Assembly: GCA_964535805.1 (NCBI GenBank)
Contig: CAZHUM010000002.1
Coordinates: forward strand, 740-64,739
DNA length: 64,000 nt
Reading direction: 5' to 3'
DNA from: an uncultured Thermoplasmata archaeon
GTDB lineage: Archaea > Thermoplasmatota > Thermoplasmata > Halarchaeoplasmatales > Halarchaeoplasmataceae
Part shown: one piece after another, positions 1 through 15,309 of the stretch
Layout of the letters: every line of letters starts with the position of its first letter
How positions within the stretch are numbered: position 1 is the first letter of the stretch
The notes under the pieces: model-generated
The model's database searches: none
What the model was told of the DNA's origin: nothing
What the model saw: only the letters and a program-made list of their open reading frames with translations
Made by a program: the position numbers and the translations under genes

Positions 1-235
1 GGAGGTATATCTTTTACATAACCGATCTCTTTAGGCTCTACTCCTTCCCCGTTCCATTTTAATTTATCGATAAAAAAATCAACATAGTTCTCTTTTGATA
101 GATACTGCTCTATCTCAGGGTTATTAATAAGATAATTTTCGGCATGTATCTTCTCTGGATTCTCCAATTTCTTTACTATTCCACTTATCCTTCTATCGAT
201 TTCTTCTTCTGACATCTCTACATATTCTTTTGTCA
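1..235 (-). CDS. hypothetical protein, N-terminal part only (gene runs past left edge)
   Basis: ATG at 235..233 (minus strand) with an open frame to the window edge. N-terminus reads MTKEYVEMSEEEIDRRISGIVKKLENPEKIH. No motif recognised. Confidence 0.4.
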
Positions 236-241
236 TTTTTT

Positions 242-1123
242 TCACGCTCCATCATATATTTTGTTCACTTCTTTCATAACTGTTTCCCATCCAATTTTAT
301 CAACTATCTTGTTGAATTTACTATATTCCTCTTCGTCTAGTTTTAAATTCTCAGAATGAAATTTGTGAATAGATGATGATTCCACTTTCTCATATCCATT
401 TAAAATATCATCTATCAAAGAAACTATCTCTCCCGCAATCAACACCCTACAAACCTTTAGACCCGGTGAGGGGGCGTCTATGAACACGTAGAATCCGTTT
501 ATTTCACTCAGTTCTTTGACCTTCGATGTTAGTAAACTCGTGCTTGAAGATAGTATCAGATGTTTGGACCATCCATCTTCGCCTTCAACGATCGCTTTAG
601 CTTCTTTCTCGTCACTTCCAAACTCGATATTTCCTTCGGAAAGGTGGAAGTCAACAATAAATTTATCAGAGGTCAACAACTCGTGGTCTATCTTACCAAA
701 TCTTCCTCTTTCTACGATAGAACGAAGTAGAGACAAAAAATGTTCATCTTTTTCGATAAGAGACCTGATACTTTCCTTGATGTTATTACGTCCAGAAGCC
801 GAAGGATTCTCTCTTACTTCCTTGACTCCATCTTCCACCCGGACAGTATAATACCTGCCGTAGAACCAGGGAAATAACGGGGTGTAACCATCTTGATTGA
901 TTAGATTCTCTAAACTATCAGGGCGATCGATCTGGTAGATTATATCTGTTATCGATTCGTCGGTCTCTTCTTTCTTCGACTGATCGCTACATTCTTCATC
1001 ATTAGGAGATACCCGTTCTATCAGACCAGCTGAAACCCCATCTCGTTCTATGTCGTAGCAGAATCTTCTCACTATCATTATTTTTTCTTCTTCTGGTGTG
1101 AAATTCATATTATCACTCTCCAT
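242..1123 (-). CDS. hypothetical protein (293 aa), last gene of the AAA+-led cassette
   Basis: Long ORF with a genuine ATG. Overlaps the upstream gene by 11 nt, suggesting an operon. No recognisable catalytic motif. Confidence 0.55.
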   Translation of the reverse strand: MESDNMNFTPEEEKIMIVRRFCYDIERDGVSAGLIERVSPNDEECSDQSKKEETDESITDIIYQIDRPDSLENLINQDGYTPLFPWFYGRYYTVRVEDGVKEVRENPSASGRNNIKESIRSLIEKDEHFLSLLRSIVERGRFGKIDHELLTSDKFIVDFHLSEGNIEFGSDEKEAKAIVEGEDGWSKHLILSSSTSLLTSKVKELSEINGFYVFIDAPSPGLKVCRVLIAGEIVSLIDDILNGYEKVESSSIHKFHSENLKLDEEEYSKFNKIVDKIGWETVMKEVNKIYDGA

Positions 1124-1886
1124 CGATTTCCAACCATTCTTTTATTTTAACTCCGTTTTCTTTGTAATTTGAAACCCAGTCCGAAAATGAACAAACACCT
1201 TTTTTACACCATTGTTTTGTCAATCCTTGATTCGGAAATGGAGCAACTTTAGATTTTATCTCACTTTTTTTACTATTTAACGACAGTATCATTTTTAGTA
1301 TTTTTAATTCTACATCTAGATAATTTGAATTTTTATTTTTTAATTCAATCTCCGTATCATTTATATTGAGTCCGTTTATATGTTTAATTAGTGATTGAGT
1401 TACTGGTTTTTTAAAACTTGATTTTGGTAACATAATAACTATTTTTTTTGGATCTAAACTTTTTATTTCTTTTTCAAGTGCATCCATATAATCAATAATT
1501 TTTTCTTTGGTAATCTCATCAACGTCTTTTATTGGTTGATAAAACAAGTCTGTAAGCCAATATCCGGAATGGATAAAATTGCATAGTCTAGTATATTTAT
1601 TATCATCATTTTCACAATCTTCAAATTTACTTATTAAATCATTGTCTTCCAAAGGTGTTAACAATGCACCAATTAATCCAATTTGTTTTGCATCTTCACC
1701 AACATAATAAAAATAATTCTTAGATTTAGAATATTTTGGAGGACTTTCAGCTATAAACATAACCCTACACATTTTCTTAGCTTCTTCATAGATATCATTA
1801 AACCTTTCATCTAAGTCCCTTTTTGTTCCGTCAATTTCTAAAATTTTTTCTAAACTGTCCGCCTTTATTTCCCGATAATTAACCAT
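1113..1886 (-). CDS. hypothetical protein (~257 aa), strongly AT-rich gene
   Basis: ORF 1113..1898. The first ATG with a GGTGG ribosome-binding site (MVNYREIK) is at 1886. Composition is markedly AT-rich versus flanks. Contains AESPP and GLIGALL segments vaguely reminiscent of UDG-superfamily motif A; this is speculative. Confidence 0.5.
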   Translation of the reverse strand: MVNYREIKADSLEKILEIDGTKRDLDERFNDIYEEAKKMCRVMFIAESPPKYSKSKNYFYYVGEDAKQIGLIGALLTPLEDNDLISKFEDCENDDNKYTRLCNFIHSGYWLTDLFYQPIKDVDEITKEKIIDYMDALEKEIKSLDPKKIVIMLPKSSFKKPVTQSLIKHINGLNINDTEIELKNKNSNYLDVELKILKMILSLNSKKSEIKSKVAPFPNQGLTKQWCKKGVCSFSDWVSNYKENGVKIKEWLEIDGE

Positions 1887-2037
1887 TTTTTCCACCAACT
1901 TTATATCGACATCATCTCTCTTAAATTTTTACCACGCTCATCAATTTAAATCCACATTTTAACCTATGGAACTTCATCCACCATATCAACCCTTGTCCTT
2001 ACCGACGATGGCCATGTACTCTTTCATCTCTTCGATC

Positions 2038-2637
2038 TCAGTCATCACAAGCACCTCCTTCAGCATCATACAGTACATCCAAAACGTGTTTCCAGCCTTT
2101 CTCGTGAACACATCTCAGAAGGCATTCGAACTTTTCTTTTTCAATATCTTCATCCATGATCTTACTGGTCAATATTAGCTCATCAGATCGATAATCCTCC
2201 ACGATCTTTTCGATGAGGGGTTTAATCTCTTCAGCGATGTAAAATAAGTAAGTTGGAGATTCTTTAAAATCTACGAAGCGTATCCCCGGTATTCTCTCCA
2301 ATAAATCCAGATCCGCATAATGCAAAGATTTGGTTATGTTCAAACTGTATTCATCGATCCAGTTACCTTGAGATAACTTTTTATCCGAAGTGTATTCACC
2401 GAGCAACACCTCGAAATCGTATTCACCCACTTGTTCATTCCATTCTCTGGAATGGAAAATATTTCCGTTCACCGTGTAGTAATCATGTCCCTTATATCTC
2501 CTAGCTTTATCCAGTGCCCACTTGAACAGATAAACCAACCTCTCATCCTCATGGAAAACTTCCCGAAGGATCGTCTCCGCCCGATCTAGATCCTCCACTT
2601 TTTCTCGTTCCCAGAAATACGGGTTTTTTTCACTCAT
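2038..2637 (-). CDS. hypothetical protein (199 aa)
   Basis: The ORF track gives 2038..2745, but the N-terminal 36 codons are an Arg/Trp-rich read-through. An internal ATG (MSEKNPYFWEREK) is preceded by a GGGGGA ribosome-binding site. It directly abuts the stop of the upstream 66-aa gene. Confidence 0.5.
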   Translation of the reverse strand: MSEKNPYFWEREKVEDLDRAETILREVFHEDERLVYLFKWALDKARRYKGHDYYTVNGNIFHSREWNEQVGEYDFEVLLGEYTSDKKLSQGNWIDEYSLNITKSLHYADLDLLERIPGIRFVDFKESPTYLFYIAEEIKPLIEKIVEDYRSDELILTSKIMDEDIEKEKFECLLRCVHEKGWKHVLDVLYDAEGGACDD

Positions 2638-2830
2638 CTTCGTCCCCCGTGAACATACCTTTCTCGATCTCCAACCTCTTCTCCAGTTCCTCACGAACCC
2701 ACGCCAACTTCTCCTCGTACCTTTTCTCCAGGTCCCACAGCACACGTATCTCTCTCATCAGGTCATAGGGAGAAAGGGAGTGAAGGTATCTCCGCTCCCT
2801 GTAGGCTTCCAGCTCTTCCTCACTGATCAT
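2630..2830 (-). CDS. small charged helical protein (66 aa)
   Basis: ORF with a GAGGGAG ribosome-binding site upstream. Its start overlaps the stop of the 54-aa repeat gene by 11 nt. Its stop sits 2 nt before the next start. These are signs of translational coupling. Confidence 0.45.
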   Translation of the reverse strand: MISEEELEAYRERRYLHSLSPYDLMREIRVLWDLEKRYEEKLAWVREELEKRLEIEKGMFTGDEDE

Positions 2831-2984
2831 CTTTCTCCCTCTTGGGGTTCAGCACTGAATCCATCACCTCTACGTCTTCTTTCAAGCTCTTCTTACATAT
2901 CTCCAGGTCATCCCTCAAACTGTTCTTGCAGATCTCTAGATCGTTCTTCAAATTCTTTTTACATATCTCCAATATATCTTTCAT
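2820..2984 (-). CDS. 54-aa protein made of three 11-residue repeats (DLEICKK-S/N-L-K/R-D/E-D), predicted coiled coil with one Cys per repeat
   Basis: Missed by the ORF track because it is under 60 aa. ATG at 2984..2982 is preceded by an AAAGGAGGA ribosome-binding site 7 nt upstream. Translation is MKDILEICKKNLKNDLEICKNSLRDDLEICKKSLKEDVEVMDSVLNPKREKDDQ. It is encoded by three 33-bp tandem DNA repeats. Confidence 0.4.
   Translation of the reverse strand: MKDILEICKKNLKNDLEICKNSLRDDLEICKKSLKEDVEVMDSVLNPKREKDDQ
2875..2973. repeat. 3 x 33-bp imperfect tandem repeat (coding, not CRISPR)
   Basis: The three units are tcttctttcaagctcttcttacatatctccagg, tcatccctcaaactgttcttgcagatctctaga and tcgttcttcaaattctttttacatatctccaat. 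They lie inside the 54-aa ORF. Confidence 0.8.
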
Positions 2985-3108
2985 TTCAAATCCTCCTTTT
3001 CATAAAGTAAGAACCGAAAGGGGGGGTGTGAAAGCGCCCCTCCTCTCGGTCCCCTCCTTCCACTTTCTCTCAGAACGTCCGTTAAGAAAGGTGGAGTCCC
3101 TTTTAGAT

Positions 3109-4596
3109 TCATGCATATCCCCTAACATCTTCCGGCTCTTCTTCGAGGATTCCTAGATAGGAGTGCATCACCTTACTCCCTTTCAACTCCTCTTCGCAGG
3201 CCTCTTCGAAGTCCTCCATCTCCACGTGATCCCTGCCCTTCCGCATCGCCTTCCTTGCAGCGTTCAGCACGGAGTTCCTGATGTGCCCCCCGGAGAACTC
3301 GTACTTCTCGGCGAGGGTTCCGATACACACGTCCTCGCACAAGGGCGTTTCCTCCGGTATGTGGTACTCCCAGATCTTCTCCCTAGCCTCGGCGTCGGGC
3401 AGTGGCATCTCCAACTTCAGGTCAAGCCTTCTCTCGATCGCCCTGTCCAAGCCGATGGCGATGTTCGTGGTGAATATGATCACTCCGTCGTGGTTCTCCA
3501 TACCCTGCAGTATGATGTTGATGACCCTGTTCTCCGACCTGTCGCAGCTGGACACGGAAGGCGATCTCCTCTGCAGCACCGCATCGGCCTCGTCTATCAG
3601 CAGTATACAGTCCTCGTTCAGGGCGTCGAAGAGCTTGCTGGCGTTCTTCTCGGTATTGCCGAAATAACAGTCCACCATGTCTCCGAAGGACACTTGATAA
3701 AGTTCTTTGTCCAACTCGTTCGCTAGAGCTTTGGCTAACATCGTCTTACCGGTGCCCGGGAATCCAGAGAACAATAGGTTCAAACCCTTCCTTTCGCCTA
3801 TCACCGATTTGAGATTCCACTCGTCAAAGAACTTCTCCGAGTTCTTTTGCTGCTCCGATAGTGATAGTATGGACTCTTTCAAATCTGTGGGTAAAACTAC
3901 CTGAGACAGTTCTACATCTGAATCCACTTTTTTCAGGAATTCGTACTCCTCTTTCTCACCGTTTCCCTTGTGCTCTGTTCTCTCCTGTTTCTCCCCGTAG
4001 AGTCCGTCTATCACCCAATCCGATAGTTCGTATCTCATCTTCTCTGGCGAGGTCCGTTCTCTCCTTCTCCTCCTTTCCCTCAGATGTTTCGGTAAGTAAG
4101 GTCTTTCCCTCTCAAACACTTCTTTAATCAGATCAAATCCCAAAAGTTCACCGGATCTAGTCAACCTCTTCCTGCAGTCCTCGACATCTTCACCTGTCAA
4201 CAACCGCAGAGCCATGATGATCTGTTCTCCAGAAGCTGTCGAGTTCGCTGTTGAAACACCGACACCTTTCTTGGAGAACAGCATCAACAAGATTATCTTA
4301 CTCTCATCTTCCACTTCCCAGAACTCGAAGAACTCGTCGCATTCGAATCCTTTTTCTTTCTTCTTTTCCTCAAGTTCTTCATGCTTTTTCTTAAAATATT
4401 CTATCTTCTCGTCTATCCTTTCGGGCGAAGGGTTCATGATCAGATTCTTCGCTTCGTTCAACAAACCATAATAAAAGGTCCTGGCAGCTCTCAAATATTG
4501 TTTATTGTCTTCGAGTTCTTCTACTTCGTCCATGTCCAGATAGTCACCCATCTGGAGTTTTCTTAATCTATCCAAAATCTCATCTTCTTTACTCAT
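3109..4596 (-). CDS. AAA+ ATPase of the classical AAA clade with a ~270-aa N-terminal domain of unknown function
   Basis: Walker A GFPGTGKTMLAKA and Walker B ILLIDEADAV are present. There is a sensor-2-like region SGGHIRNSVLNAARKAM. Start moved to ATG (MSKEDEIL) with a GGAGGT ribosome-binding site 8 nt upstream. The N-terminal half has no recognisable domain. Confidence 0.8.
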   Translation of the reverse strand: MSKEDEILDRLRKLQMGDYLDMDEVEELEDNKQYLRAARTFYYGLLNEAKNLIMNPSPERIDEKIEYFKKKHEELEEKKKEKGFECDEFFEFWEVEDESKIILLMLFSKKGVGVSTANSTASGEQIIMALRLLTGEDVEDCRKRLTRSGELLGFDLIKEVFERERPYLPKHLRERRRRRERTSPEKMRYELSDWVIDGLYGEKQERTEHKGNGEKEEYEFLKKVDSDVELSQVVLPTDLKESILSLSEQQKNSEKFFDEWNLKSVIGERKGLNLLFSGFPGTGKTMLAKALANELDKELYQVSFGDMVDCYFGNTEKNASKLFDALNEDCILLIDEADAVLQRRSPSVSSCDRSENRVINIILQGMENHDGVIIFTTNIAIGLDRAIERRLDLKLEMPLPDAEAREKIWEYHIPEETPLCEDVCIGTLAEKYEFSGGHIRNSVLNAARKAMRKGRDHVEMEDFEEACEEELKGSKVMHSYLGILEEEPEDVRGYA

Positions 4597-4626
4597 ATTC
4601 AATACCTCCAAACAGCGGCGGATAAC

Positions 4627-4643
4627 GGCACCCAACGGGTGCC
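4627..4643. promoter_or_regulatory. perfect 7-bp stem / 3-nt loop hairpin GGCACCCaacGGGTGCC in the leader region of the AAA+ operon
   Basis: Inverted repeat read directly from sequence. It sits about 30 nt upstream of the AAA+ start codon on the minus strand. Confidence 0.5.
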
Positions 4644-4732
4644 CCTTTGCGGCATCTTCCTCCTCTCATAATGCACATCTCCGTTAGTTAACGGCGGTAA
4701 CTGTTATATTAGTAAGAAGTCCTATATATAAT

Positions 4733-4750
4733 TAACGGAACTATCCGTTA
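4733..4750. promoter_or_regulatory. palindromic operator-like site TAACGGAactaTCCGTTA; the same half-site recurs at 4620-4626 and 4681-4704
   Basis: The inverted repeat lies between divergently transcribed genes. TAACGG occurs three times and CCGTTA occurs twice within 130 bp. Confidence 0.5.
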
Positions 4751-4760
4751 CATATCAAAA

Positions 4761-4774
4761 TATTTAAATATATA
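4761..4774 (+). promoter_or_regulatory. archaeal TATA box (tatttaaatatata) for the Csa3-like regulator gene
   Basis: TTTAAATA core lies about 25-30 nt upstream of the ATG at 4794, consistent with a leaderless or short-leader transcript. Confidence 0.55.
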
Positions 4775-4793
4775 CTAGAAGATTATATACTGT

Positions 4794-5588
4794 ATGACAG
4801 CAAAAGATTCAGGAGTTCATATAACAGCTGGCGGTTTTGAATACGACAGGGTATTGGTACCGATGCTGAACAAGTACCCCGTTGATAAACTGGTGATGTT
4901 CAGGTCTAAAGCTTCGCCTTACACTGAAGCGAGGGACCTAGCCGGAGAATTTCTGACCAAACTTAAGGATAACCCGATCGACATCGACATAGTAAAACTG
5001 GATATCTACGACTTCAACGACGTTTTCATAAACACCCTCGACCAGATAAAGAAATACGCGGAGAAAGGTAAGAAAGTTTACATCAACATTTCTCCAGTAC
5101 CTAAATTGGCCACTGTTGCCATGATAAGTGCCGCTTTCCTATCGAGGTACAAAGACAGCCTGGAGATATTCTATGCATCGCCCAAAGATTACCTGATACC
5201 TAAGATGATGGAATATCTCTCAGACATCGAAAACAAGGATTCTTTGGACAGATTGAAAGAACTCGGAGATAGGTTCATGAAGAACGGCACGGCTGTGGGT
5301 GTGCAAGAGTACCAGGAGATACCGGTGTTCCCCATCAAAGAGATCAACGATGTTGACATGGAGATACTGAAGACCATCAAAGAAAAGGAAGGCGTCCAAT
5401 CCATCGAAGAACTCGTAGAAACGATCAACGAAAACCGAAAAGAAGAAATCAAGCGGTCGAGCGTCCAGTATCGTTTAGAGAGACTGGAAGAGAAACGGAT
5501 GCTCGATACGGAGAGAGAAGACAGGCGGCTGAAGATACGACTCAACCGGCTGGGAGAAGTGTACCTGGAAGGATGTATGCACAGCTGA
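4794..5588 (+). CDS. Csa3-like transcriptional regulator (N-terminal CARF/Rossmann-like domain plus C-terminal winged HTH; HFX_2341-like family)
   Basis: N-terminal HITAGGFEYDRVLVPML matches the T/S-x-GF-D/E motif of Csa3 CARF domains. The C-terminal half is basic and helical (RLERLEEKRMLD..RLKIRLNRLGE), typical of a wHTH. It is divergent from a palindrome-rich intergenic region. Confidence 0.5.
   Translation: MTAKDSGVHITAGGFEYDRVLVPMLNKYPVDKLVMFRSKASPYTEARDLAGEFLTKLKDNPIDIDIVKLDIYDFNDVFINTLDQIKKYAEKGKKVYINISPVPKLATVAMISAAFLSRYKDSLEIFYASPKDYLIPKMMEYLSDIENKDSLDRLKELGDRFMKNGTAVGVQEYQEIPVFPIKEINDVDMEILKTIKEKEGVQSIEELVETINENRKEEIKRSSVQYRLERLEEKRMLDTEREDRRLKIRLNRLGEVYLEGCMHS
5531..5584. repeat. 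direct repeat copy 1 (54 bp, 52/54 identical to 7122..7175); encodes the C-terminal 17 codons of the regulator
   Basis: The sequence is gaagatacgactcaaccggctgggagaagtgtacctggaaggatgtatgcacag. Weaker similarity continues about 20 bp further. Confidence 0.85.
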
Positions 5589-5620
5589 ATCAACACGTCC
5601 CGAGCAGGCTAGAGGAATAA

Positions 5621-6238
5621 TCACTCGAATATATCAGAGAACTGTGAACTTATGGTCCTTTTCAATCCGTCCCGTTTCCTTTCTACCCTTAACCCGACTA
5701 CACGATCAATCTCACTGGAATCCAATTTAATATCTTTTTCTAAAAGCTTTTCTCGTATACCTACAAGATCGTCAAAGAATTTTTCTTTGTTCGGATCATC
5801 CTCAATCCTATCCATATAAGCTTCCGCTTTGGCGGCTATCAGATGTTCGTTCGTCGGCACGTGGACTCCCCTGATTAACTCAGAGGTTTCAGTCATATTC
5901 TGAAGGACCTCTTCCGTTAAAAAGTGTGAGCCTCCGGCATCTATCAATTCAACGGTTATATTTTTATCTCCAATAGTTGCAAAAAAGGTGATACTCGCTC
6001 CATCGGTTTCGATATTGAACGATCCGTTCAGCTCCTTTGCTACCTCTTCTAAACGATCATAGAACTCTTCATATGGGTCGGTAGGAAAGGGATGTACGTC
6101 TATGTCTTTAGTACTCCTTACATTTCCAAATCTATACAACACCGCTGAGCTGCCGAGCAGTAGGATATCTATTCCGTGTCGATTGAAGGCTTCAACAAGT
6201 TTTTTAACACATTCGTAGTGCTCTTTTTCATCGATCAT
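5621..6238 (-). CDS. minimal nucleotidyltransferase-fold protein (205 aa)
   Basis: LLGSSAVLYRFGNVRSTKDIDV matches the GS-x(9-13)-DxD signature of the pol-beta NTase superfamily. It overlaps the upstream gene by 4 nt (ATGA). Confidence 0.6.
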   Translation of the reverse strand: MIDEKEHYECVKKLVEAFNRHGIDILLLGSSAVLYRFGNVRSTKDIDVHPFPTDPYEEFYDRLEEVAKELNGSFNIETDGASITFFATIGDKNITVELIDAGGSHFLTEEVLQNMTETSELIRGVHVPTNEHLIAAKAEAYMDRIEDDPNKEKFFDDLVGIREKLLEKDIKLDSSEIDRVVGLRVERKRDGLKRTISSQFSDIFE

Positions 6239-6972
6239 CTAACAGAGACCTCCTTTATCTTTCCCTTTCCTAGAGCGTTTTGCTTTTCTTTTATATAATT
6301 CGGAAGTTCAACATCGAATTCATTCGGTTTTTTACCACCGTAGCCAGAATAACCCAGCCATAAAAGTTTGTCTTTCATGTTCTGACTAAGTTTCAACCCT
6401 TCAAAGATTTCCTTACCGGCCTTGACTTCTCGTGGAAGATAAGTGGATAAAAAAAGCAGAGCCGTATCCGTTCCGTCGAGTATAGGTAGTTCATATGTTT
6501 GGCCAAACAATTTCAACTTGACCTTCTTTTCAGCAGAAAAATCATAGACAAAATAATCTAATTCACCAAAACCTGGATCTTCGTTGAAAACGACCATAGT
6601 TCTCTCCGGAACATAATCCGCATATGCATTCCCAGAAAAACAAATAAATGCATGAGATAAACCTTCGTGTTCGAACACGGAATTCAATGAGAGTAATTCA
6701 GCATAATAACCCATGGCCGCCCAGCAATTGATCAGTATCGATGGATCCACTGCGAAATACTCACCACGGTTTAATTTTATTGTCAAGTAATAATCCATAG
6801 ACTTTTTTAAAAATTGATCTGCCAAGTTTTTATTGTCTTCTAACATATCCTTTCTTTTAAATCTCTTAGGCGGATTTAAACTAATATATTTTTTAATCAA
6901 CCATCTGGGAGGTACCCTCATGTCTTTTTCATCGAGGGTCGGTATATTATGGACTTTATGTTCTCCTTCCAT
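6235..6972 (-). CDS. hypothetical protein (245 aa), upstream partner of the nucleotidyltransferase
   Basis: ORF with a 4-nt overlap with the NTase gene. AT-rich. No Rx4-6H HEPN motif and no obvious HTH seen. Confidence 0.5.
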   Translation of the reverse strand: MEGEHKVHNIPTLDEKDMRVPPRWLIKKYISLNPPKRFKRKDMLEDNKNLADQFLKKSMDYYLTIKLNRGEYFAVDPSILINCWAAMGYYAELLSLNSVFEHEGLSHAFICFSGNAYADYVPERTMVVFNEDPGFGELDYFVYDFSAEKKVKLKLFGQTYELPILDGTDTALLFLSTYLPREVKAGKEIFEGLKLSQNMKDKLLWLGYSGYGGKKPNEFDVELPNYIKEKQNALGKGKIKEVSVR

Positions 6973-7121: not shown

Positions 7122-7175
7122 GAAGATACGACTCAACTAGCTGGGAGAAGTGTACCTGGAAGGATGTATGCACAG
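7122..7175. repeat. direct repeat copy 2 (non-coding remnant of the regulator 3' end)
   Basis: The sequence is gaagatacgactcaactagctgggagaagtgtacctggaaggatgtatgcacag. It has two mismatches versus copy 1. Confidence 0.85.
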
Positions 7176-7215
7176 GCGAATCATCACTTCCCAAGCAGGA
7201 ACCTTGTTCCAGTCT

Positions 7216-7725
7216 TTACAGCACTTCGACTTCTTTGATCTTTATGTCCTTGGCGGGCACGTCGGCATGTCCTCTCTCCTTCAAGGTGTCCACGTCACCT
7301 ATCTTCTCCACAACGTCCATACCATCCACAACTTTGCCGAATACACAGTAGCCCCAACCGTCTCCGGTTCTGTCCCAGTCCAGTCCATCGTTATCCTTCA
7401 GGTTGATGTAGAACTGTGACGTTGCCGAATGCGGTTTACCCGTTCTAGCCATGGCTACGGTTCCCTCCTTGTTCCTGTGACCGCTTTTTTCCGCCTCGTT
7501 CTTTACCGGTCCGTAGGTGGTGTCTTTCTGGATCATACCCGGTTTGAATCCACCGCCCTGCACCACGAAGTTCGGGATGACTCTGTGGAATATCGATCCT
7601 TTAAAGAACCCGTCTTCTGCATACTTAAGAAAGTTTTTCACGGTCTCTGGTGCGTCGTCATCGAAAAGCTCTATCACCAACTCTCCTTCCGTCGTTTTCA
7701 TCTTTACCTTGGTGTTATCTGACAT
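7216..7725 (-). CDS. ppiB: peptidyl-prolyl cis-trans isomerase, cyclophilin type
   Basis: LVIELFDDDAPETVKNF, FHRVIPNFVVQGGG and GTVAMAR..PHSATSQFYIN are canonical cyclophilin motifs. They closely resemble E. coli PpiB. Confidence 0.9.
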   Translation of the reverse strand: MSDNTKVKMKTTEGELVIELFDDDAPETVKNFLKYAEDGFFKGSIFHRVIPNFVVQGGGFKPGMIQKDTTYGPVKNEAEKSGHRNKEGTVAMARTGKPHSATSQFYINLKDNDGLDWDRTGDGWGYCVFGKVVDGMDVVEKIGDVDTLKERGHADVPAKDIKIKEVEVL

Positions 7726-7847
7726 GTTATCTGAGCAGGTGATTATCGAAGACACTTATTAACCTATTCTATGGAAAGGTTATGGATCAAGCTAGAAACA
7801 TATGTGGAAAATTTTTATAATGACAAGACGCTGTAGAACTGATACCC

Positions 7848-8271: not shown

Positions 8272-8688
8272 TTATCTCCTGTTTTTATCATCAAAGTATT
8301 GTCTAGCATCTTCGCCGTCGTCGTAATATCTGATGATCTTTTTACGTGGCTTGAATCCCAGTTCTTTGTAGAACTGGTAGGCACCCTTGTTGCTGACTCG
8401 GACGGTAAGACTCAATCTTTTGGCGCTGATCCTTTCAGATAATGCTTCCACAAGAGCGTAGCCGATACCCTTTCGTCGGTGCCTTGGATCTACTGCTATG
8501 GAAACTATCACACCGCTTCTGGTACCCATGGCATAGCCCACTAATTCGTCATCATTCATTGCCACCAAGAAGAGCGGGCTTCCCATGTATGACGGAAATA
8601 TCTTTCTTCCGTAGGGTTCTTTGAAGGACCTGTTTTCGATATCGAGTATGCCATCGAGATGTTCCTTCTTACATTCTTTTATATTCAT
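8272..8688 (-). CDS. rimI: GNAT N-acetyltransferase, RimI-like
   Basis: GNAT motif A is VDPRHRRKGIGYALVEA. Size and layout are typical of ribosomal-protein alanine acetyltransferase. Confidence 0.75.
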   Translation of the reverse strand: MNIKECKKEHLDGILDIENRSFKEPYGRKIFPSYMGSPLFLVAMNDDELVGYAMGTRSGVIVSIAVDPRHRRKGIGYALVEALSERISAKRLSLTVRVSNKGAYQFYKELGFKPRKKIIRYYDDGEDARQYFDDKNRR

Positions 8689-8704
8689 GGTATTATCGCC
8701 TTTA

Positions 8705-9382
8705 TCAATAGTTTCCCATACCAACTTTCATGGATCCCTGGGTTTCTATCCAACCTTGGCTATCCGTTATCTCGATATATGCTCGATCCGTATATTCATT
8801 TCCGTTCCAGCCGAAAACCCACCATGTATTTTCACCACATAGTTCTACTGAGATATGGATTTCATCGGTATAATTTTCGTCGAACTCAGCATACAATATT
8901 CCCGTGTAACTATAGCATTTTAATCTATCTTCCCAGCTTTCGGGATATGGAAAATCGCAATCCTCCTGTTGGATATCAGTTTTTGGATAAAGCATGAGAT
9001 CATTACCCAAAGGCTCCTTTGTATTCACTGTTTCTTCAGAATGTATATCAAAAGCAGCATACTGTTGTGAAGATATGTTTGCTATACTAACCGATAACAT
9101 TGGGCCATATTCCGTTTCGATGTATGATATGTTCCAATTGGCTGGTATATAACCTGTTTCAAGGATGTTTTCGTTGGGCGTTTGTCCGTCCTGGGTTGGA
9201 TAAGGCACGTATAAGATTATCTCGTCTACATCATTATTACCCACATCTACGTCTATTTGATATTGATATCCGCTGGAATAACTTTCGTTCTTAAGATGTC
9301 TAGCGTACAGAAAAAAGCCTGCAACGGCCGCTGCTATCACCACCACGACTATGACTAGAATTGTAATTATCGTGCTTTTCAT
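8705..9382 (-). CDS. membrane-anchored or secreted hypothetical protein
   Basis: The N-terminus is a hydrophobic segment IITILVIVVVVIAAAVAGFFLY. The remainder is an acidic extracellular-looking domain. Confidence 0.5.
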   Translation of the reverse strand: MKSTIITILVIVVVVIAAAVAGFFLYARHLKNESYSSGYQYQIDVDVGNNDVDEIILYVPYPTQDGQTPNENILETGYIPANWNISYIETEYGPMLSVSIANISSQQYAAFDIHSEETVNTKEPLGNDLMLYPKTDIQQEDCDFPYPESWEDRLKCYSYTGILYAEFDENYTDEIHISVELCGENTWWVFGWNGNEYTDRAYIEITDSQGWIETQGSMKVGMGNY

Positions 9383-10126: not shown

Positions 10127-10564
10127 TCATACCTCGTGCTCGATACGCTCGCCGGTGGTCATATACACCACGCGTTCGGCGATGTTACAGGCGTGGTCGG
10201 CGATGCGCTCCAGATACCGTATCACCAGTACGTACTGGGTACCCAGTGTGATAGCCTTGGAGTCCTCCATCATGTAGGTGAGTGTTTCCCGGAATATCTC
10301 GTCGTAGAGTGCATCGACCATCTCTTCCTTTTCGTATATGATGTCGATGGCCTTTCGGTCCTCTTCAACGAAGGAATCTACCGCACGGTCCACCATATCT
10401 ATGGTCAATTCTGCCATGTGCGGTATGGAAACTAATTTCTTCAGATGTTCTTTATCCAGCATCCTCTTTGCCACCTTAGCGATATCTTCGGAATATCGAC
10501 CTATACGGTCAAGATCGGTTATTATCTTGAGACAGGTACCGATCATACGCAGATCTCTGGCCAC
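10127..10564 (-). CDS. PhoU-domain protein, apparently N-terminally truncated
   Basis: YLERIADHACNIAERVVYM is the PhoU repeat signature. The ORF begins at a GTG with an in-frame stop 30 nt upstream and no ATG. It is about 1.5 PhoU repeats long and overlaps the 3' end of the upstream membrane ORF. Confidence 0.55.
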   Translation of the reverse strand: MARDLRMIGTCLKIITDLDRIGRYSEDIAKVAKRMLDKEHLKKLVSIPHMAELTIDMVDRAVDSFVEEDRKAIDIIYEKEEMVDALYDEIFRETLTYMMEDSKAITLGTQYVLVIRYLERIADHACNIAERVVYMTTGERIEHEV

Positions 10565-11030
10565 CGGCGCTTGTAGAGATTATCAATGCATCTTTAGTAC
10601 TCAACTTTTGTATAAAAATAGATAATATCAAAACTGAAAGGGATATCAAGAAAAAGCCAACAATCATCAATCCATTTTTAATATTATAAATAAAAAATTC
10701 AGGGAATAGAAAATAGTAATCGATGAAAATGCCTAGAAAGGTTATCCAGAAAGTAACAAGGAAAACCCTTTCAAAAAAAGTGTTTGGCTGCTCTTTGAAA
10801 GCTTCCTCTTTAATCTTTCTTGAGATAATACCGAACAACAAAACAACATATAGGATAGTGTTAATAGGAAAATTTAGTAAAAAGATGGTAATCATAGTGT
10901 ATAATAAAAAACCAGGTGTATAGTAAGCGGCAGGATTTCCTAAAGCTAGACCAGATATACTAGTAAGAGAGAATAATACGATCAACAGGCCAAACAAGTA
11001 TACCTTGATCAATTTGTTTAGATCGTTCAT
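10509..11030 (-). CDS. hypothetical polytopic membrane protein
   Basis: Multiple hydrophobic helices. AT-rich. The 3' end overlaps the PhoU ORF by 56 nt. Confidence 0.4.
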   Translation of the reverse strand: MNDLNKLIKVYLFGLLIVLFSLTSISGLALGNPAAYYTPGFLLYTMITIFLLNFPINTILYVVLLFGIISRKIKEEAFKEQPNTFFERVFLVTFWITFLGIFIDYYFLFPEFFIYNIKNGLMIVGFFLISLSVLILSIFIQKLSTKDALIISTSAGGQRSAYDRYLSQDNNRS

Positions 11031-11093
11031 TTTATTCTAATCCCGACATAACTGAATAAGGATACGATTATATTTTCTTTTCTATCTACAGAC

Positions 11094-12309: not shown

Positions 12310-15309
12310 ATGGAGGAAGAAACTCCAGTCTTCTCCCTAAAACCAGAGTTGACCGGAAGAGACGAGGAGATCGAAAGGCTTGACAATCTATTCGATAATA
12401 CCGTCAAGGGGAAAGGCTCCACTGTTTTCATCTCAGGAGAAGCTGGTATCGGTAAGACCAGGCTCGTAGAGGAACTCATAAACACTGCAGAAGCAGAGAA
12501 CGCCAAGATAATCCAGGGATGGTGCCTCGCAGACAGCTTGGAGCCGTTGATGCCCTTCAAAGAAGGGCTGAGAGACGCGGGGCTCTCCCACTTCGTATCT
12601 AAGAATCCGCCACCGAAGGTGATCTCCGCTTACCTGATAGACATCTCCGGTATATTGATAGCAAAAGCGGAGAGAGAGAAAACGGAGCTGGACCCGGACA
12701 TCTTCGCATCCATGCTCACCGCCGTTGAGAACTTCGTAAGCGACTCGCTTTCCATGATGGGTGAGGAACACGGCAGCAAGTTGAACAGCATACGATACGG
12801 GGAGTTCGAGATACTAGTACAGTCTACATCCGAGGTGTCCATCGCTGCGGTCATCGAGGGGACCCACAGTGAATTTTTGATCAACGATATGAGGGACACC
12901 CTGAAGAACGTAAGCTCCGAGTTCAGCTCATGGGAGGGCGACATGAGATGTGTCGATAAGGTCAAACCCAAGGTCGATTGGTTCATCGAATCCAGAAAGT
13001 ACGAAGGGAGGCACTTGGTGGACGACCCGAAGATCAGGCAGGAGAACCTTTTCGACAACGTTCTCCTGGGGCTGAGAAGGATATCTGCCGAGCGTCCGGT
13101 AGTCGTTTTCATAGACGACCTCCAGTGGGCCGACCCGTCCTCGCTAAACATGCTCCACTATCTCTCGAGGAACACAAGAGATAACGGTGTTCTTATACTT
13201 GGAACGTACCGTCCAGAGGATATTCTGGAATTGTCATCAACAATTCCAAATGTCGATGGAATTTGCCAGAAAATTCCAACAGATGTTTCTGAAACGTATG
13301 ATGGAAAAACCCATCCGCTGAAGACGACCATGCAGAATATGAGCAGAGAAGACCTCTTCGAGACAGTGGAGCTGAGCAGGCTCGAGGAATCGACTGTCGA
13401 GGAATTCATGGAGAAAACACTGGGTAAAATAGAATTGAAGAGCGGGTTCGTTAAGGAAGTATACAGAGAGAGCGAGGGCAACCCGTTTTTCCTTCTCGAA
13501 GTAACCAAGATGCTGATAGAAGAAAAACATCTGATAAACGAAGATGGCACGTGGAAGATCAAGGATCCCGAGGAGGGTATCCACATACCGTCCAAAGTGT
13601 ACGACGTAGTGGTAAGACGACTCGAGAGGTTGATCCAAGAGCAGAGAGACCTCTTAGAATGCGCTAGCGTGGTGGGTGAAGAGTTCGAGAGTTCCGTGGT
13701 TGGAGAGGTCACGGGGATGAACAGAGTGAACCTACTGAAGAATCTGAACAAGATCGAGAGGACTCACAACTTGATACATTCCATAGAAAAAAAATACCGG
13801 TTCGACCACTCTAAGATAAGAGAAGTTCTCTACAACGGTATAAACGAGGAGCTGAGGCAGGAATATCATCGTATAATCGCCGATACCTACGTAGAGCTGT
13901 ACCAGGATGATATCGAAACCGTGATCGAGGATGTCGCAAATCACTACGACCTAGCGGAGGACGAAAGGGCGGGAGATTACTTGATACGAGCAGGAAACAA
14001 AACCAAGGACAGCTTCGGCAACGAGGAGGCAGTACTTTGGTACAAGAAATCTTTGAAATATCAACTTGAAAATACAGATCTAGCACAGGTATACAAGAAG
14101 ATGGGTGAGATACATTCTTTGACGGGGGACTACAAGGAATCTATAGAATATCTGGAAAGGGCTATCCCCAATATCGACGAAAGGGAAACCCAGGTTGATC
14201 TTTACTGGGATATAGCAAACGCCTACGAGAGGATGGGGGAGTACGATAGGGCATTGGAAGAATGCGAAAAAGGCTTGGATATTAATAAGGATATAAATAC
14301 CTCCGGTAAATCAAGAATCTTAGGGATGATGGGGTGGATATACATGAGAAGAAACGACTATGACAACGCTGAAGAAGTCCTTTTCCGAGCCCTTGAGGTA
14401 GCAGAGAGTATTGGGGGTGGGGATGAGATCGGGTACGTTTACAGCTTCTTAGGCAATTTCTACGATAACAAAGGTATCTACGACAAAGCACTGGATTATT
14501 ACAAAAAATCTCTTGAGATATTCCAGGAGATAGGGGATGTTATTTACCGATCGAAGGCACTGAACAACATCGGTTTGGTCAACTGGAAGATCGGGAACTT
14601 CGATAAGGCTGAAAAGTGCTACAGCGAGAGTTTGGAGATCAAAGAGAACGTGGGAGACAAGCACGGTATACTGGTCACCTTGGCAAACCTGGGCAGTCTA
14701 CACGAAGATATGGGAGATTACGAGAACGCCCTGGAAGAACACAAGAAATGTCTGGAGATAAGTGAGACCATCGGAGACAGTTTCAGTTCCTGCGTGGCCA
14801 GGTTCAATATCGGTTCCCTCTACAAAGTAAAAGATGAGATGGGGAGAGCTATGGAGTACTTCGAAGAAAGCCTAGCTCTGTGTAAAAAGATTAACAACGA
14901 TTGGATACAGGTCCATAATGAGTGTGAGATCGCCCATATAAAAGCGAATGAGGGTGATTTTGAGAGGGCTTTGGAATTGATCGAAGATGCTCTGAATAGA
15001 ACTAGAGAAATGGGTGCACAAGCCGAGGAGGGGCTTTGTCTTAAGGTCAAAGGTATCATCCATAGAGAGATGGAGGAATATGAGGAGGCAGAAGATGAGT
15101 TAAGAAAAGCTGAAAATATACTAGATGAAGTGGGCGATAAGAAAGAGATGGCTAAGACATATCTGGAATATGGGAGATTGTTCAAAGATAGGGGGGAATT
15201 TGGCAAAGCCCGCGAGAGATTGGAGAAGGCAAAAGAGATGTTCGGAGATATGGGGATGGGGATCTGGGTCGATAAAGCAGATGAGGATATGTCAACTCTA
15301 GATAGTTAA
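12310..15309 (+). CDS. STAND-type NTPase (AAA_16-like) with a roadblock/LC7-like insertion and C-terminal TPR repeats (999 aa)
   Basis: Walker A is GEAGIGKTRL and Walker B is PVVVFIDDLQWAD. About 120 aa between them (ISAYLIDISGILIAKAERE...EILVQSTSEVSIAAVIEG) follows the roadblock/MglB pattern. Residues 560-990 contain many TPR-like repeats (e.g. EEAVLWYKKSLKY, YDRALEECEKGLDI). Confidence 0.7.
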   Translation: MEEETPVFSLKPELTGRDEEIERLDNLFDNTVKGKGSTVFISGEAGIGKTRLVEELINTAEAENAKIIQGWCLADSLEPLMPFKEGLRDAGLSHFVSKNPPPKVISAYLIDISGILIAKAEREKTELDPDIFASMLTAVENFVSDSLSMMGEEHGSKLNSIRYGEFEILVQSTSEVSIAAVIEGTHSEFLINDMRDTLKNVSSEFSSWEGDMRCVDKVKPKVDWFIESRKYEGRHLVDDPKIRQENLFDNVLLGLRRISAERPVVVFIDDLQWADPSSLNMLHYLSRNTRDNGVLILGTYRPEDILELSSTIPNVDGICQKIPTDVSETYDGKTHPLKTTMQNMSREDLFETVELSRLEESTVEEFMEKTLGKIELKSGFVKEVYRESEGNPFFLLEVTKMLIEEKHLINEDGTWKIKDPEEGIHIPSKVYDVVVRRLERLIQEQRDLLECASVVGEEFESSVVGEVTGMNRVNLLKNLNKIERTHNLIHSIEKKYRFDHSKIREVLYNGINEELRQEYHRIIADTYVELYQDDIETVIEDVANHYDLAEDERAGDYLIRAGNKTKDSFGNEEAVLWYKKSLKYQLENTDLAQVYKKMGEIHSLTGDYKESIEYLERAIPNIDERETQVDLYWDIANAYERMGEYDRALEECEKGLDINKDINTSGKSRILGMMGWIYMRRNDYDNAEEVLFRALEVAESIGGGDEIGYVYSFLGNFYDNKGIYDKALDYYKKSLEIFQEIGDVIYRSKALNNIGLVNWKIGNFDKAEKCYSESLEIKENVGDKHGILVTLANLGSLHEDMGDYENALEEHKKCLEISETIGDSFSSCVARFNIGSLYKVKDEMGRAMEYFEESLALCKKINNDWIQVHNECEIAHIKANEGDFERALELIEDALNRTREMGAQAEEGLCLKVKGIIHREMEEYEEAEDELRKAENILDEVGDKKEMAKTYLEYGRLFKDRGEFGKARERLEKAKEMFGDMGMGIWVDKADEDMSTLDS

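Follow-up and report, generated by a model that had tools for sequence, protein, structure and literature searches.

An AAA+ ATPase gene with an HbYX-type tail and a dedicated Csa3-like regulator, beside an AT-rich gene array that encodes a uracil-DNA glycosylase-fold protein, in an uncultured Thermoplasmata archaeon

PAN, Cdc48/VAT and AMA are the described archaeal ATPases to which the one reported here is most readily compared; Thermoplasmata lack PAN and Cdc48 is their only known proteasomal ATPase, and the HbYX motif at the C-terminus of such proteins has been given the operational pattern [LVIMGAPFYW][FY]x (PMC3493965). The haloarchaeal protein HFX_2341 is an experimentally characterised Csa3a-like repressor, a global regulator that also takes part, directly or indirectly, in cas gene regulation (PMC11434293). 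Proteins resembling uracil-DNA glycosylase (UDG) have been shown by experiment to be antiviral effectors, as in Brig1 (PMC11078745) and the integron UDG-like proteins (bioRxiv 10.1101/2025.10.29.685425). Genes with likenesses to each of these lie together at the left end of a 64-kb stretch of contig CAZHUM010000002.1 from an uncultured Thermoplasmata archaeon (the window, to which coordinates refer unless another contig is named). There an AAA+ ATPase gene and the array of genes that follows it leftwards all lie on the minus strand, and a regulator gene diverges from the ATPase gene on the plus strand. No gene of the locus falls into a characterised family below the superfamily level. We hold with moderate confidence that the block is a composite of two parts with different histories, a Thermoplasmata AAA+ unfoldase unit and an AT-rich accessory island.

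The original prediction had taken these genes for one cassette of six to seven members headed by the ATPase, with the regulator as mere context. Comparison with seven independent loci that carry other members of the AAA+ family (L003, L004, L005/6, L007, L008/9, L011/12 and, found later, L018/19) supports neither point: the cassette's gene order is not kept in any of the seven, and the divergent regulator is a conserved partner of the AAA+ gene. The genes p54, p66, p199, p257 and p293 are absent from L003–L009 and L011–L012, and six AAA+ loci (L003, L004, L005, L007, L008 and L011) lack all of the downstream genes; the AAA+ neighbours there are a thioredoxin-sized gene with PHO4/AlaRS/FtsZ, hydrogenase, metallo-beta-lactamase or toxin-antitoxin genes. 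Similarity of the window to the other genomes ends right after a G/C-rich stem-loop at 3004–3060 (minus strand). The regulator gene, its operators, the AAA+ gene and this stem-loop would thus make up a first unit (about 3004–5588) that is conserved in the lineage and probably vertically inherited, and the island, from about position 3000 leftwards, would be AT-rich and laterally acquired, with its genes in one direction. A single cassette is argued against because the p257 module, with its own probable promoter, travels without the ATPase, and because the island is variable and of lower G+C content (GC).

The AAA+ gene (3109–4596, minus strand) encodes 495 amino acids (aa) from its ATG, and its product is, as first described, a classical AAA+ ATPase. 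It has the Walker A and Walker B motifs GFPGTGKT and LLIDEAD, scores 88.7 bits against Pfam AAA (PF00004, cut-off 21.2) over residues 274–399, has a YFG pore loop and the R389/R390 pair of the second region of homology, which is invariant in a 16-sequence family alignment, and shows the large alpha/beta subdomain and helical lid of the AAA fold. Its closest solved relatives are Cdc48/p97/VAT (the D2 domain in the PDB profile search) and FtsH, and it was aligned to Cdc48 D1/D2. A search of 5.8 billion proteins gave 16 full-length relatives at 44–58% identity, the named ones being Thermoplasmata, including 'Ca. Saliniplasma', and the family comes to about 18 sequences in all. The next-best matches, PF22977-bearing bacterial proteins (650–830 aa) and archaeal Cdc48, cover the AAA half only, and a scan of viral contigs (IMG/VR) with the AAA+ alignment found generic AAA domains only. 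The ATPase has a classical AAA module and an aromatic pore loop like PAN, Cdc48/VAT and AMA (PMC3493965), and a single AAA ring like PAN; because its scores against PAN models (102–110 bits, cut-offs 500–750) and CDC48 (87 bits, cut-off 803) fall far below the cut-offs and its N-domain is different, the profile comparisons place it outside the PAN, Cdc48 and AMA groups.

A defence system was considered for the ATPase, since PADLOC IetA is its best match (9.8e-36, residues 224–470) and IteA_antiphage (NF042959) is its top NCBIfam match, as would be expected if it were the IetA component of an IetAS-type system. The NCBIfam score, however, is 111 bits against an equivalog cut-off of 510, and the match is to AAA modules in general, because the PAN (110 bits) and FtsH (104 bits) models score equally on the same protein. 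The N-terminal 220 residues lie outside the match, and no neighbour in the window, L016 (a contig of the same organism, see below) or L018 matches a peptidase that could be an IetS-like protease partner. We rejected this assignment, which is very improbable.

The N-terminal ~270 residues had been described as unannotated, and no Pfam, NCBIfam or PADLOC model matches them. An AlphaFold model (pLDDT, the predicted local distance difference test score, 75) has a helical hairpin at residues 31–77, a helix/strand domain at 85–160 and a disordered Arg-rich linker at 163–180, followed by the AAA module. Because hhalign aligns this region with the winged-helix region of the bacterial relatives (probability 68%, E 5e-5, ~140 columns), the N-domain probably consists of a helical hairpin and, after it, a diverged winged helix of the PF22977 type, an assignment in which our confidence is moderate. 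The bacterial winged-helix-AAA proteins (PF22977, 'Winged helix domain, variant', plus PF00004) and short IetA-like ATPases are 33–43% identical to the window protein in the AAA half, and several of the bacterial proteins also have RG[WY]-type tails; unlike it, the bacterial proteins are longer, with larger N-regions and sometimes a second P-loop, and the window protein for its part fails the PF22977 model. We know of no function established for the PF22977 family, and no paper in the literature that was searched names it. The helical-hairpin and winged-helix-like N-domain also sets the ATPase apart from PAN and Cdc48, since it has neither a coiled-coil/OB arrangement nor a double-psi barrel. 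Among the classical AAA unfoldases the protein thus represents a new architecture, which goes together with a tail of the HbYX type and a Csa3-like regulator of its own.

The ATPase ends in VRGYA, its last 12 residues being acidic and disordered in the model. All 16 family members have the penultimate Tyr and 14 have Gly at position −3, and the tail residues before the Tyr vary; family copies found later end in KGYK (L018) and NMYA (an L019 paralog). Fourteen of the 16 tails fit [LVIMGAPFYW][FY]x, that of the window protein being GYA, and for this reason the family is assigned an HbYX-type tail in the operational sense. With the archaeal proteasomal ATPases it shares a flexible acidic tail in which the penultimate residue is an invariant Tyr and which agrees with the pattern cited above. 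We read the ATPase as a classical-clade hexameric unfoldase whose clients would probably be recognised by the helical/winged-helix N-domain and the Arg-rich linker and threaded through the YFG pore loops, and whose flexible Gly-Tyr-X tail would dock into a partner. The most plausible partner, in a class without PAN, would be the 20S proteasome. As a part of the composite reading, docking to the 20S proteasome is a tentative proposal that we consider clearly less probable than its contrary. Several features weigh against it: position −3 is a small Gly and not a hydrophobic residue, with Arg or His there in two members; the N-domain resembles neither the PAN nor the Cdc48 N-domains; and the bacterial winged-helix-AAA relatives, most lineages of which to our knowledge have no 20S proteasome, often end in RGW-like aromatic tails. 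Because several of these relatives carry RGW-type tails, the partner of the aromatic tail may be a different one. The Gly at position −3, the small size of the clade and the dedicated Csa3-like regulator are likewise unlike PAN, Cdc48 and AMA. If docking to the 20S proteasome does occur, the family would add another class of archaeal proteasomal ATPase to those three, in a lineage for which Cdc48 has been taken to be the only one; it would also be the first such class to have its own Csa3-like regulator, possibly nucleotide-sensing, and a clearly defined operator. We note that P0030, a 339-aa AAA ATPase from a soil metagenome (L013/L014), has an identical VRGYA tail, so that the tail motif extends beyond the 495-aa family; its neighbours are housekeeping genes of an archaeal purine-biosynthesis context (PurL, PurQ, PurS and riboflavin kinase).

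The CARF-like regulator that the original prediction placed beside the ATPase gene is encoded at 4794–5588 (plus strand, 264 aa), divergent from AAA+, with an intergenic region of 197 nt. It matches Pfam HFX_2341_N (PF19810, 84 bits against a cut-off of 30) and the Penicillinase_R winged helix (PF03965, 24.9 against 22.6), and Csa3_N weakly, and so has the architecture of a CARF-like Rossmann N-domain joined to a winged-helix DNA-binding domain, as in HFX_2341/Csa3a (PMC11434293). Homologs at 57–65% identity lie no more than 5 kb from AAA+ in L003, L005, L007, L008 and L011, which gives the window and five of the six other informative loci, the contig of L004 being cut at the AAA+ promoter; in L003, L005 and L007 the regulator is adjacent and divergent as it is here.

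The AAA+ promoter (all elements on the minus strand) has a TATA box, TTATATATAG, at 4722–4731. One palindrome, TAACGGAtagtTCCGTTAA at 4732–4750 (operator 1), directly abuts this box, and a second, CCGTTAACTAACGG at 4681–4694 (operator 2), starts 27 nt downstream of it, close to where transcription would be expected to begin. Seven genomes show this arrangement of two operators around a TATA box. In the window, L003, L005, L007 and L008 both blocks are almost invariant, that of operator 1 fully so in an alignment of five genomes, despite a protein identity of only about 47–57%; in L011/12 the layout is kept with co-varying half-sites (GTTACG...CGTAAC), and L004, which starts at the TATA box, shows part of it, with a variant of operator 2. 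Each operator is unique within the 64-kb window. To judge from its sequence, the layout is typical of an archaeal repressor-controlled promoter, and we infer that the adjacent regulator binds both palindromes: with its winged helix and its Rossmann domain for ligand sensing, it would do so as a dimer and would thereby gate AAA+ expression. Predicted palindromic operators that overlap the promoter of the divergent gene add to the likeness to HFX_2341; unlike the situation of that global regulator, the operators here are found at the AAA+ promoter only in the 64 kb, and there is no CRISPR array in the window. A sigma-70 promoter and terminator scan stayed at background level, its model not being relevant to an archaeal host.

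Some further features surround the regulator and the promoter. The 5' leader of AAA+ in the window has an extra ~55 nt (around 4624–4646, minus strand) that is absent from the other genomes and holds the hairpin GGCACCC-GTT-GGGTGCC. A 78-nt direct repeat (5531–5608 and 7122–7199, 91% identical), which copies the 3' end of the regulator gene, brackets 5621–6972, where a DUF2204 nucleotidyltransferase (NTase, 205 aa) and an uncharacterised 245-aa protein are encoded; this repeat-flanked NTase cassette, which was part of the first description of the neighbourhood, has the look of an element inserted site-specifically at the regulator gene's end. In L003, L005, L007 and L011 the regulator-AAA+ pair has a metallo-beta-lactamase gene in its company, in differing positions and orientations, with Lactamase_B_2 and RMMBL domains (beta-CASP-like) in the first three and Lactamase_B_2 without RMMBL in L011; no counterpart of the L003/L007 gene was found in the window.

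The stem-loop at 3004–3060 begins 49 nt past the AAA+ stop codon and is followed by a T-rich stretch. Its minimum free energy is −31.7 kcal/mol (z −3.35), it is also present 3' of the AAA+ gene in L003, L004, L005 and L007 and partly in L011, and four of its ten pairs show compensatory changes. It would close the conserved unit. In L003 and L007 a ribosome-binding site and a small co-directional gene likewise trail the stem-loop, and because of this it may act between cistrons, as an attenuator or a stability element, and fall short of a full terminator. The small post-AAA+ gene is common to L003 and L007; a link with the window's small genes was rejected, and tblastn of p54, p66 and p199 gave no match in either locus. 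A comparison with Rfam gave nothing beyond a sub-threshold snoRNA match.

To the left of position 4596 the open reading frames of the minus strand are co-directional and tightly packed, as the original prediction had it. The island would begin with three strain-specific, translationally coupled genes, p54 (2820–2984), p66 (2630–2830) and p199 (2038–2637), each an open reading frame with a Shine-Dalgarno-like site upstream (AAGGAGGA in the case of p54); the p66 start overlaps the p54 stop by 11 nt and the p199 start overlaps the p66 stop by 8 nt, so that the sites and overlaps reported for the three small genes hold. They are orphans. They had been taken for tiny structural or adaptor proteins, and we rejected conserved adaptors because they have no homologs outside Logan contigs of the same organism and are found in none of the seven other AAA+ loci; p199 also has no family match and no homolog in any fetched locus. 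Most of p54 consists of three tandem 33-nt (11-aa) repeats, DLEICKKSL-like, at 2868–2971. Between the window and a 4.4-kb contig of a sister strain (L001), eight of nine single-nucleotide polymorphisms fall within the 61 nt of 2777–2837, at the p54 stop and p66 start, where they turn the p54 C-terminus EKDDQ into KNHDE and alter two p66 residues; this is a patch of local recombination or diversification.

Behind the orphans a mobile module with its own promoter would follow, comprising p257, p293, p162, p106, an AbrB/MazE-like gene, p170 and p250. The p257 gene (1113–1886, minus strand) is AT-rich, as had been remarked, with a GC of 0.275 against 0.448 for the window, and along the array GC falls from 0.48 in the AAA+ gene to 0.275–0.39 from p257 onward. 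The TATA-like sequence ATATAAAG precedes the p257 ATG by 14–21 nt, and p257 therefore probably has its own promoter. The next gene, p293 (242–1123, minus strand), encodes a protein of unassigned fold that is the partner of p257. The gene itself stands as first described, and its 11-nt overlap with p257 is uncertain, since public gene calls and three homologs start it at Met6 (position 1108), which probably makes it a 288-aa gene at 242–1108; exact look-up matched the 288-aa form and not the 293-aa form. The gene that runs off the left edge starts at 236 on the minus strand (1–236 holds its first 78 codons), and its remainder lies left of the window; it is complete, with 162 aa, at 947–1435 of the Logan contig L016 from the same organism. 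The array does not end at the window edge: L016 carries it on for 2303 nt, with the 162-aa gene followed by genes of 106, 79 (AbrB/MazE-like), 170 and 250 aa (an AAA_23/SMC_N ABC-type ATPase), all co-directional and low in GC. Besides AAA+, no block protein of the window matches a curated family in Pfam, NCBIfam, PADLOC or PHROGs. An accessory, defence-like neighbourhood is supported, as the original prediction proposed.

The p257 protein has the alpha/beta/alpha fold of the UDG superfamily. Against Pfam UDG (PF03167) it scores 11.9 bits (cut-off 24.3), the best family member reaches E 0.0057, and the Pfam model weakly matches four of 19 family members. Exhaustive HMMER searches of 1.84 billion representative proteins gave about 19 sequences for the p257 family and eight for p293, with 28 matches in total from the p257 and p293 searches; an earlier kind of search, a word index queried with concatenated p199, p257, p293 and p78, returned P0121 only and missed the families found later. 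The conserved motifs of the p257 family are ESPP, YF, D113, P118 and APFP. Motif A reads A-E-S-P-P with E and P invariant, and resembles the GEAPG motif of family-4 UDGs; in the place of motif B stands APFP, which contains neither His nor Asn. The lack of the motif B His/Asn and the score below the Pfam threshold speak against p257 as an enzyme. We regard p257 as a small new UDG-fold family; weak PADLOC matches to DpdH (E 7e-4) and CARF (E 0.011) were set aside because the UDG fold fits better. For p293 there is no Pfam, PDB or PHROG match, and PDB profile searches with p257 and p293 gave nothing significant. Both the AAA+ and the p257 families are small and known only from metagenomes, and the functions given here are predicted ones.

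The alpha/beta UDG fold is what p257 has in common with Brig1 (PMC11078745) and the integron UDG-like proteins (bioRxiv 10.1101/2025.10.29.685425), and it combines a family-4-like E-x-P motif A with a place in an AT-rich accessory island next to ABC ATPase and AbrB/MazE-like genes. Unlike those proteins it is archaeal, has no detectable sequence similarity to known families, lacks the motif B His/Asn and is partnered by p293, and some of its relatives are fused to or preceded by an AbrB or ribbon-helix-helix (RHH) domain, two of them carrying an N-terminal AbrB fusion. The module would most likely act on the DNA of invading elements by excising or binding modified bases, as Brig1/Dag glycosylases do; alternatively it may be virus-borne cargo. 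p257 represents a new archaeal UDG-fold branch, with p293 as its constant partner in mobile or viral contexts, and so adds to what has lately been found on the reuse of glycosylase folds in conflicts between viruses and hosts. This idea and that of proteasome docking are both directly testable with small recombinant proteins and short DNA or peptide probes.

In all the loci seen p293 adjoins or lies near a p257-like gene: it is adjacent in three (the window, L010 and L015) and one gene away in a fourth (L018/L019). The virus-like 3.7-kb contig L010 has a Phage_portal_3 fragment followed by AbrB-like and p257-like genes, a p293-p162 fusion (P0121, 61% identity over p293) and the start of a p106-like gene, and no AAA+. 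L015 has the end of a p257-like gene and then a p293-like gene, and is too short to show whether AAA+ is near. P0133 and P0135 probably share another contig. More distant p257-like genes (27–35% identity) lie in 18 metagenome loci, with none of the other module genes.

The soda-lake Thermoplasmata metagenome-assembled genome (MAG) of L018/L019 bears on a second explanation, that AAA+, p257, p293 and p250 form one antiviral system. Detection of foreign DNA by the DNA-sensing module would lead the unfoldase to switch on, reshape or break down a component, and the small genes would be variable adaptors. Its module and AAA+ genes are all on one strand: those listed are an AAA_5 (McrB-like) ATPase gene upstream, genes of 440 and 264 aa, a p250-like ABC ATPase (E 7e-26), AAA+ (501 aa), an RHH-like 351-aa gene, a p257-like gene, a 205-aa gene, a p293-like gene and a second p257-like gene. 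The four families are therefore co-located and co-directional in two genomes, their copies being 29–41% identical between the window plus L016 and L018/L019; all are extremely rare, the ATPase's best PADLOC match is IetA (1e-35), and p54–p199 probably need read-through from AAA+. In these respects the expectation that the genes co-localise holds for p257, p293 and p250 beside an AAA+ paralog in one MAG, and it fails at the six AAA+ loci that lack them. Several of those six of the seven other loci lie amid housekeeping genes in conserved synteny. The order differs as well, p250 being upstream of AAA+ in L018 and at the far downstream end of the array in L016, and p257 and p293 reach only this one of the seven other AAA+ loci. 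The L018 AAA+ is deep-branching (39–46% identity to all other family members) and its copy has neither regulator nor operators; the p257-p293 pair occurs without AAA+ in L010, GC and the TATA-like site suggest a separate unit from p257 onward, and the conserved hairpin divides AAA+ from the rest. We consider a single system rather unlikely.

The same MAG also weighs against the composite reading, since there the deep-branching AAA+ sits among one p250-like, two p257-like and one p293-like gene on a single strand. It is unlikely that the same rare families came to lie beside two distant AAA+ members by chance, because the families are so small (28 matches among 1.8 billion proteins for p257 and p293, about 18 sequences for AAA+); the AAA+ 3' flank is therefore either a preferred landing site for such islands or functionally tied to them. 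Moreover, the 19-nt gap between hairpin and p54 leaves no room for a promoter, so that p54–p199 probably owe their expression to transcription running on from AAA+, and the neighbourhood evidence as a whole consists of seven other AAA+ loci and three other p257/p293 loci in MAGs and short contigs. A bolder form of the functional tie makes the AAA+ family a signal-inducible antiviral hub, with a CARF-like switch, a proteasome tail and recruited DNA-sensing modules that would steer viral or host proteins to degradation; this is improbable.

A third explanation takes everything downstream of the AAA+ hairpin for what is left of a virus or plasmid that integrated with the AAA+ 3' flank as its target, with p257, p293, p162 and p106 as viral genes whose roles would be, for example, in DNA-modification handling or counter-defence and not in host defence. 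This explanation overlaps with the composite reading, and we think it unlikely. In L010 the module comes directly after the portal fragment, the island has low GC and many short co-directional orphans with overlapping stops and starts, and two genomes have it just past the AAA+ 3' end; on its far side in L019 it meets the 3' end of a second AAA+ paralog (10700–11082, minus strand), which is convergent to it and whose acidic tail ends in the canonical HbYX NMYA. The NTase cassette, elsewhere in the window, is an instance of repeat-flanked insertion into the 3' end of the regulator gene. The L010 portal match is, however, to a fragment and below the Pfam threshold (31.3 against 33.8 bits), and no capsid, terminase, portal or integrase gene is present in the 5.3 kb downstream of AAA+ (window 1–3000 plus L016), where PHROG matches are limited to the AbrB-like gene and the P-loop of the ATPase. 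Pattern scans with p257 and p293 (N-terminal patterns for the latter) found no relative in 2.9 million IMG/VR contigs, genome scans with the N-terminal p293 patterns found nothing, and no flanking direct repeat or att site of the island was identified. On balance we return to the composite reading, in which a conserved unfoldase unit is followed by an acquired island.

Further into the window, a 999-aa STAND-type protein (an AAA_16 NTPase with many TPR repeats) is encoded at 12310–15309 among ordinary genes, which include cyclophilin (7216–7755), GNAT (8272–8724) and PhoU (10127–10564) genes.

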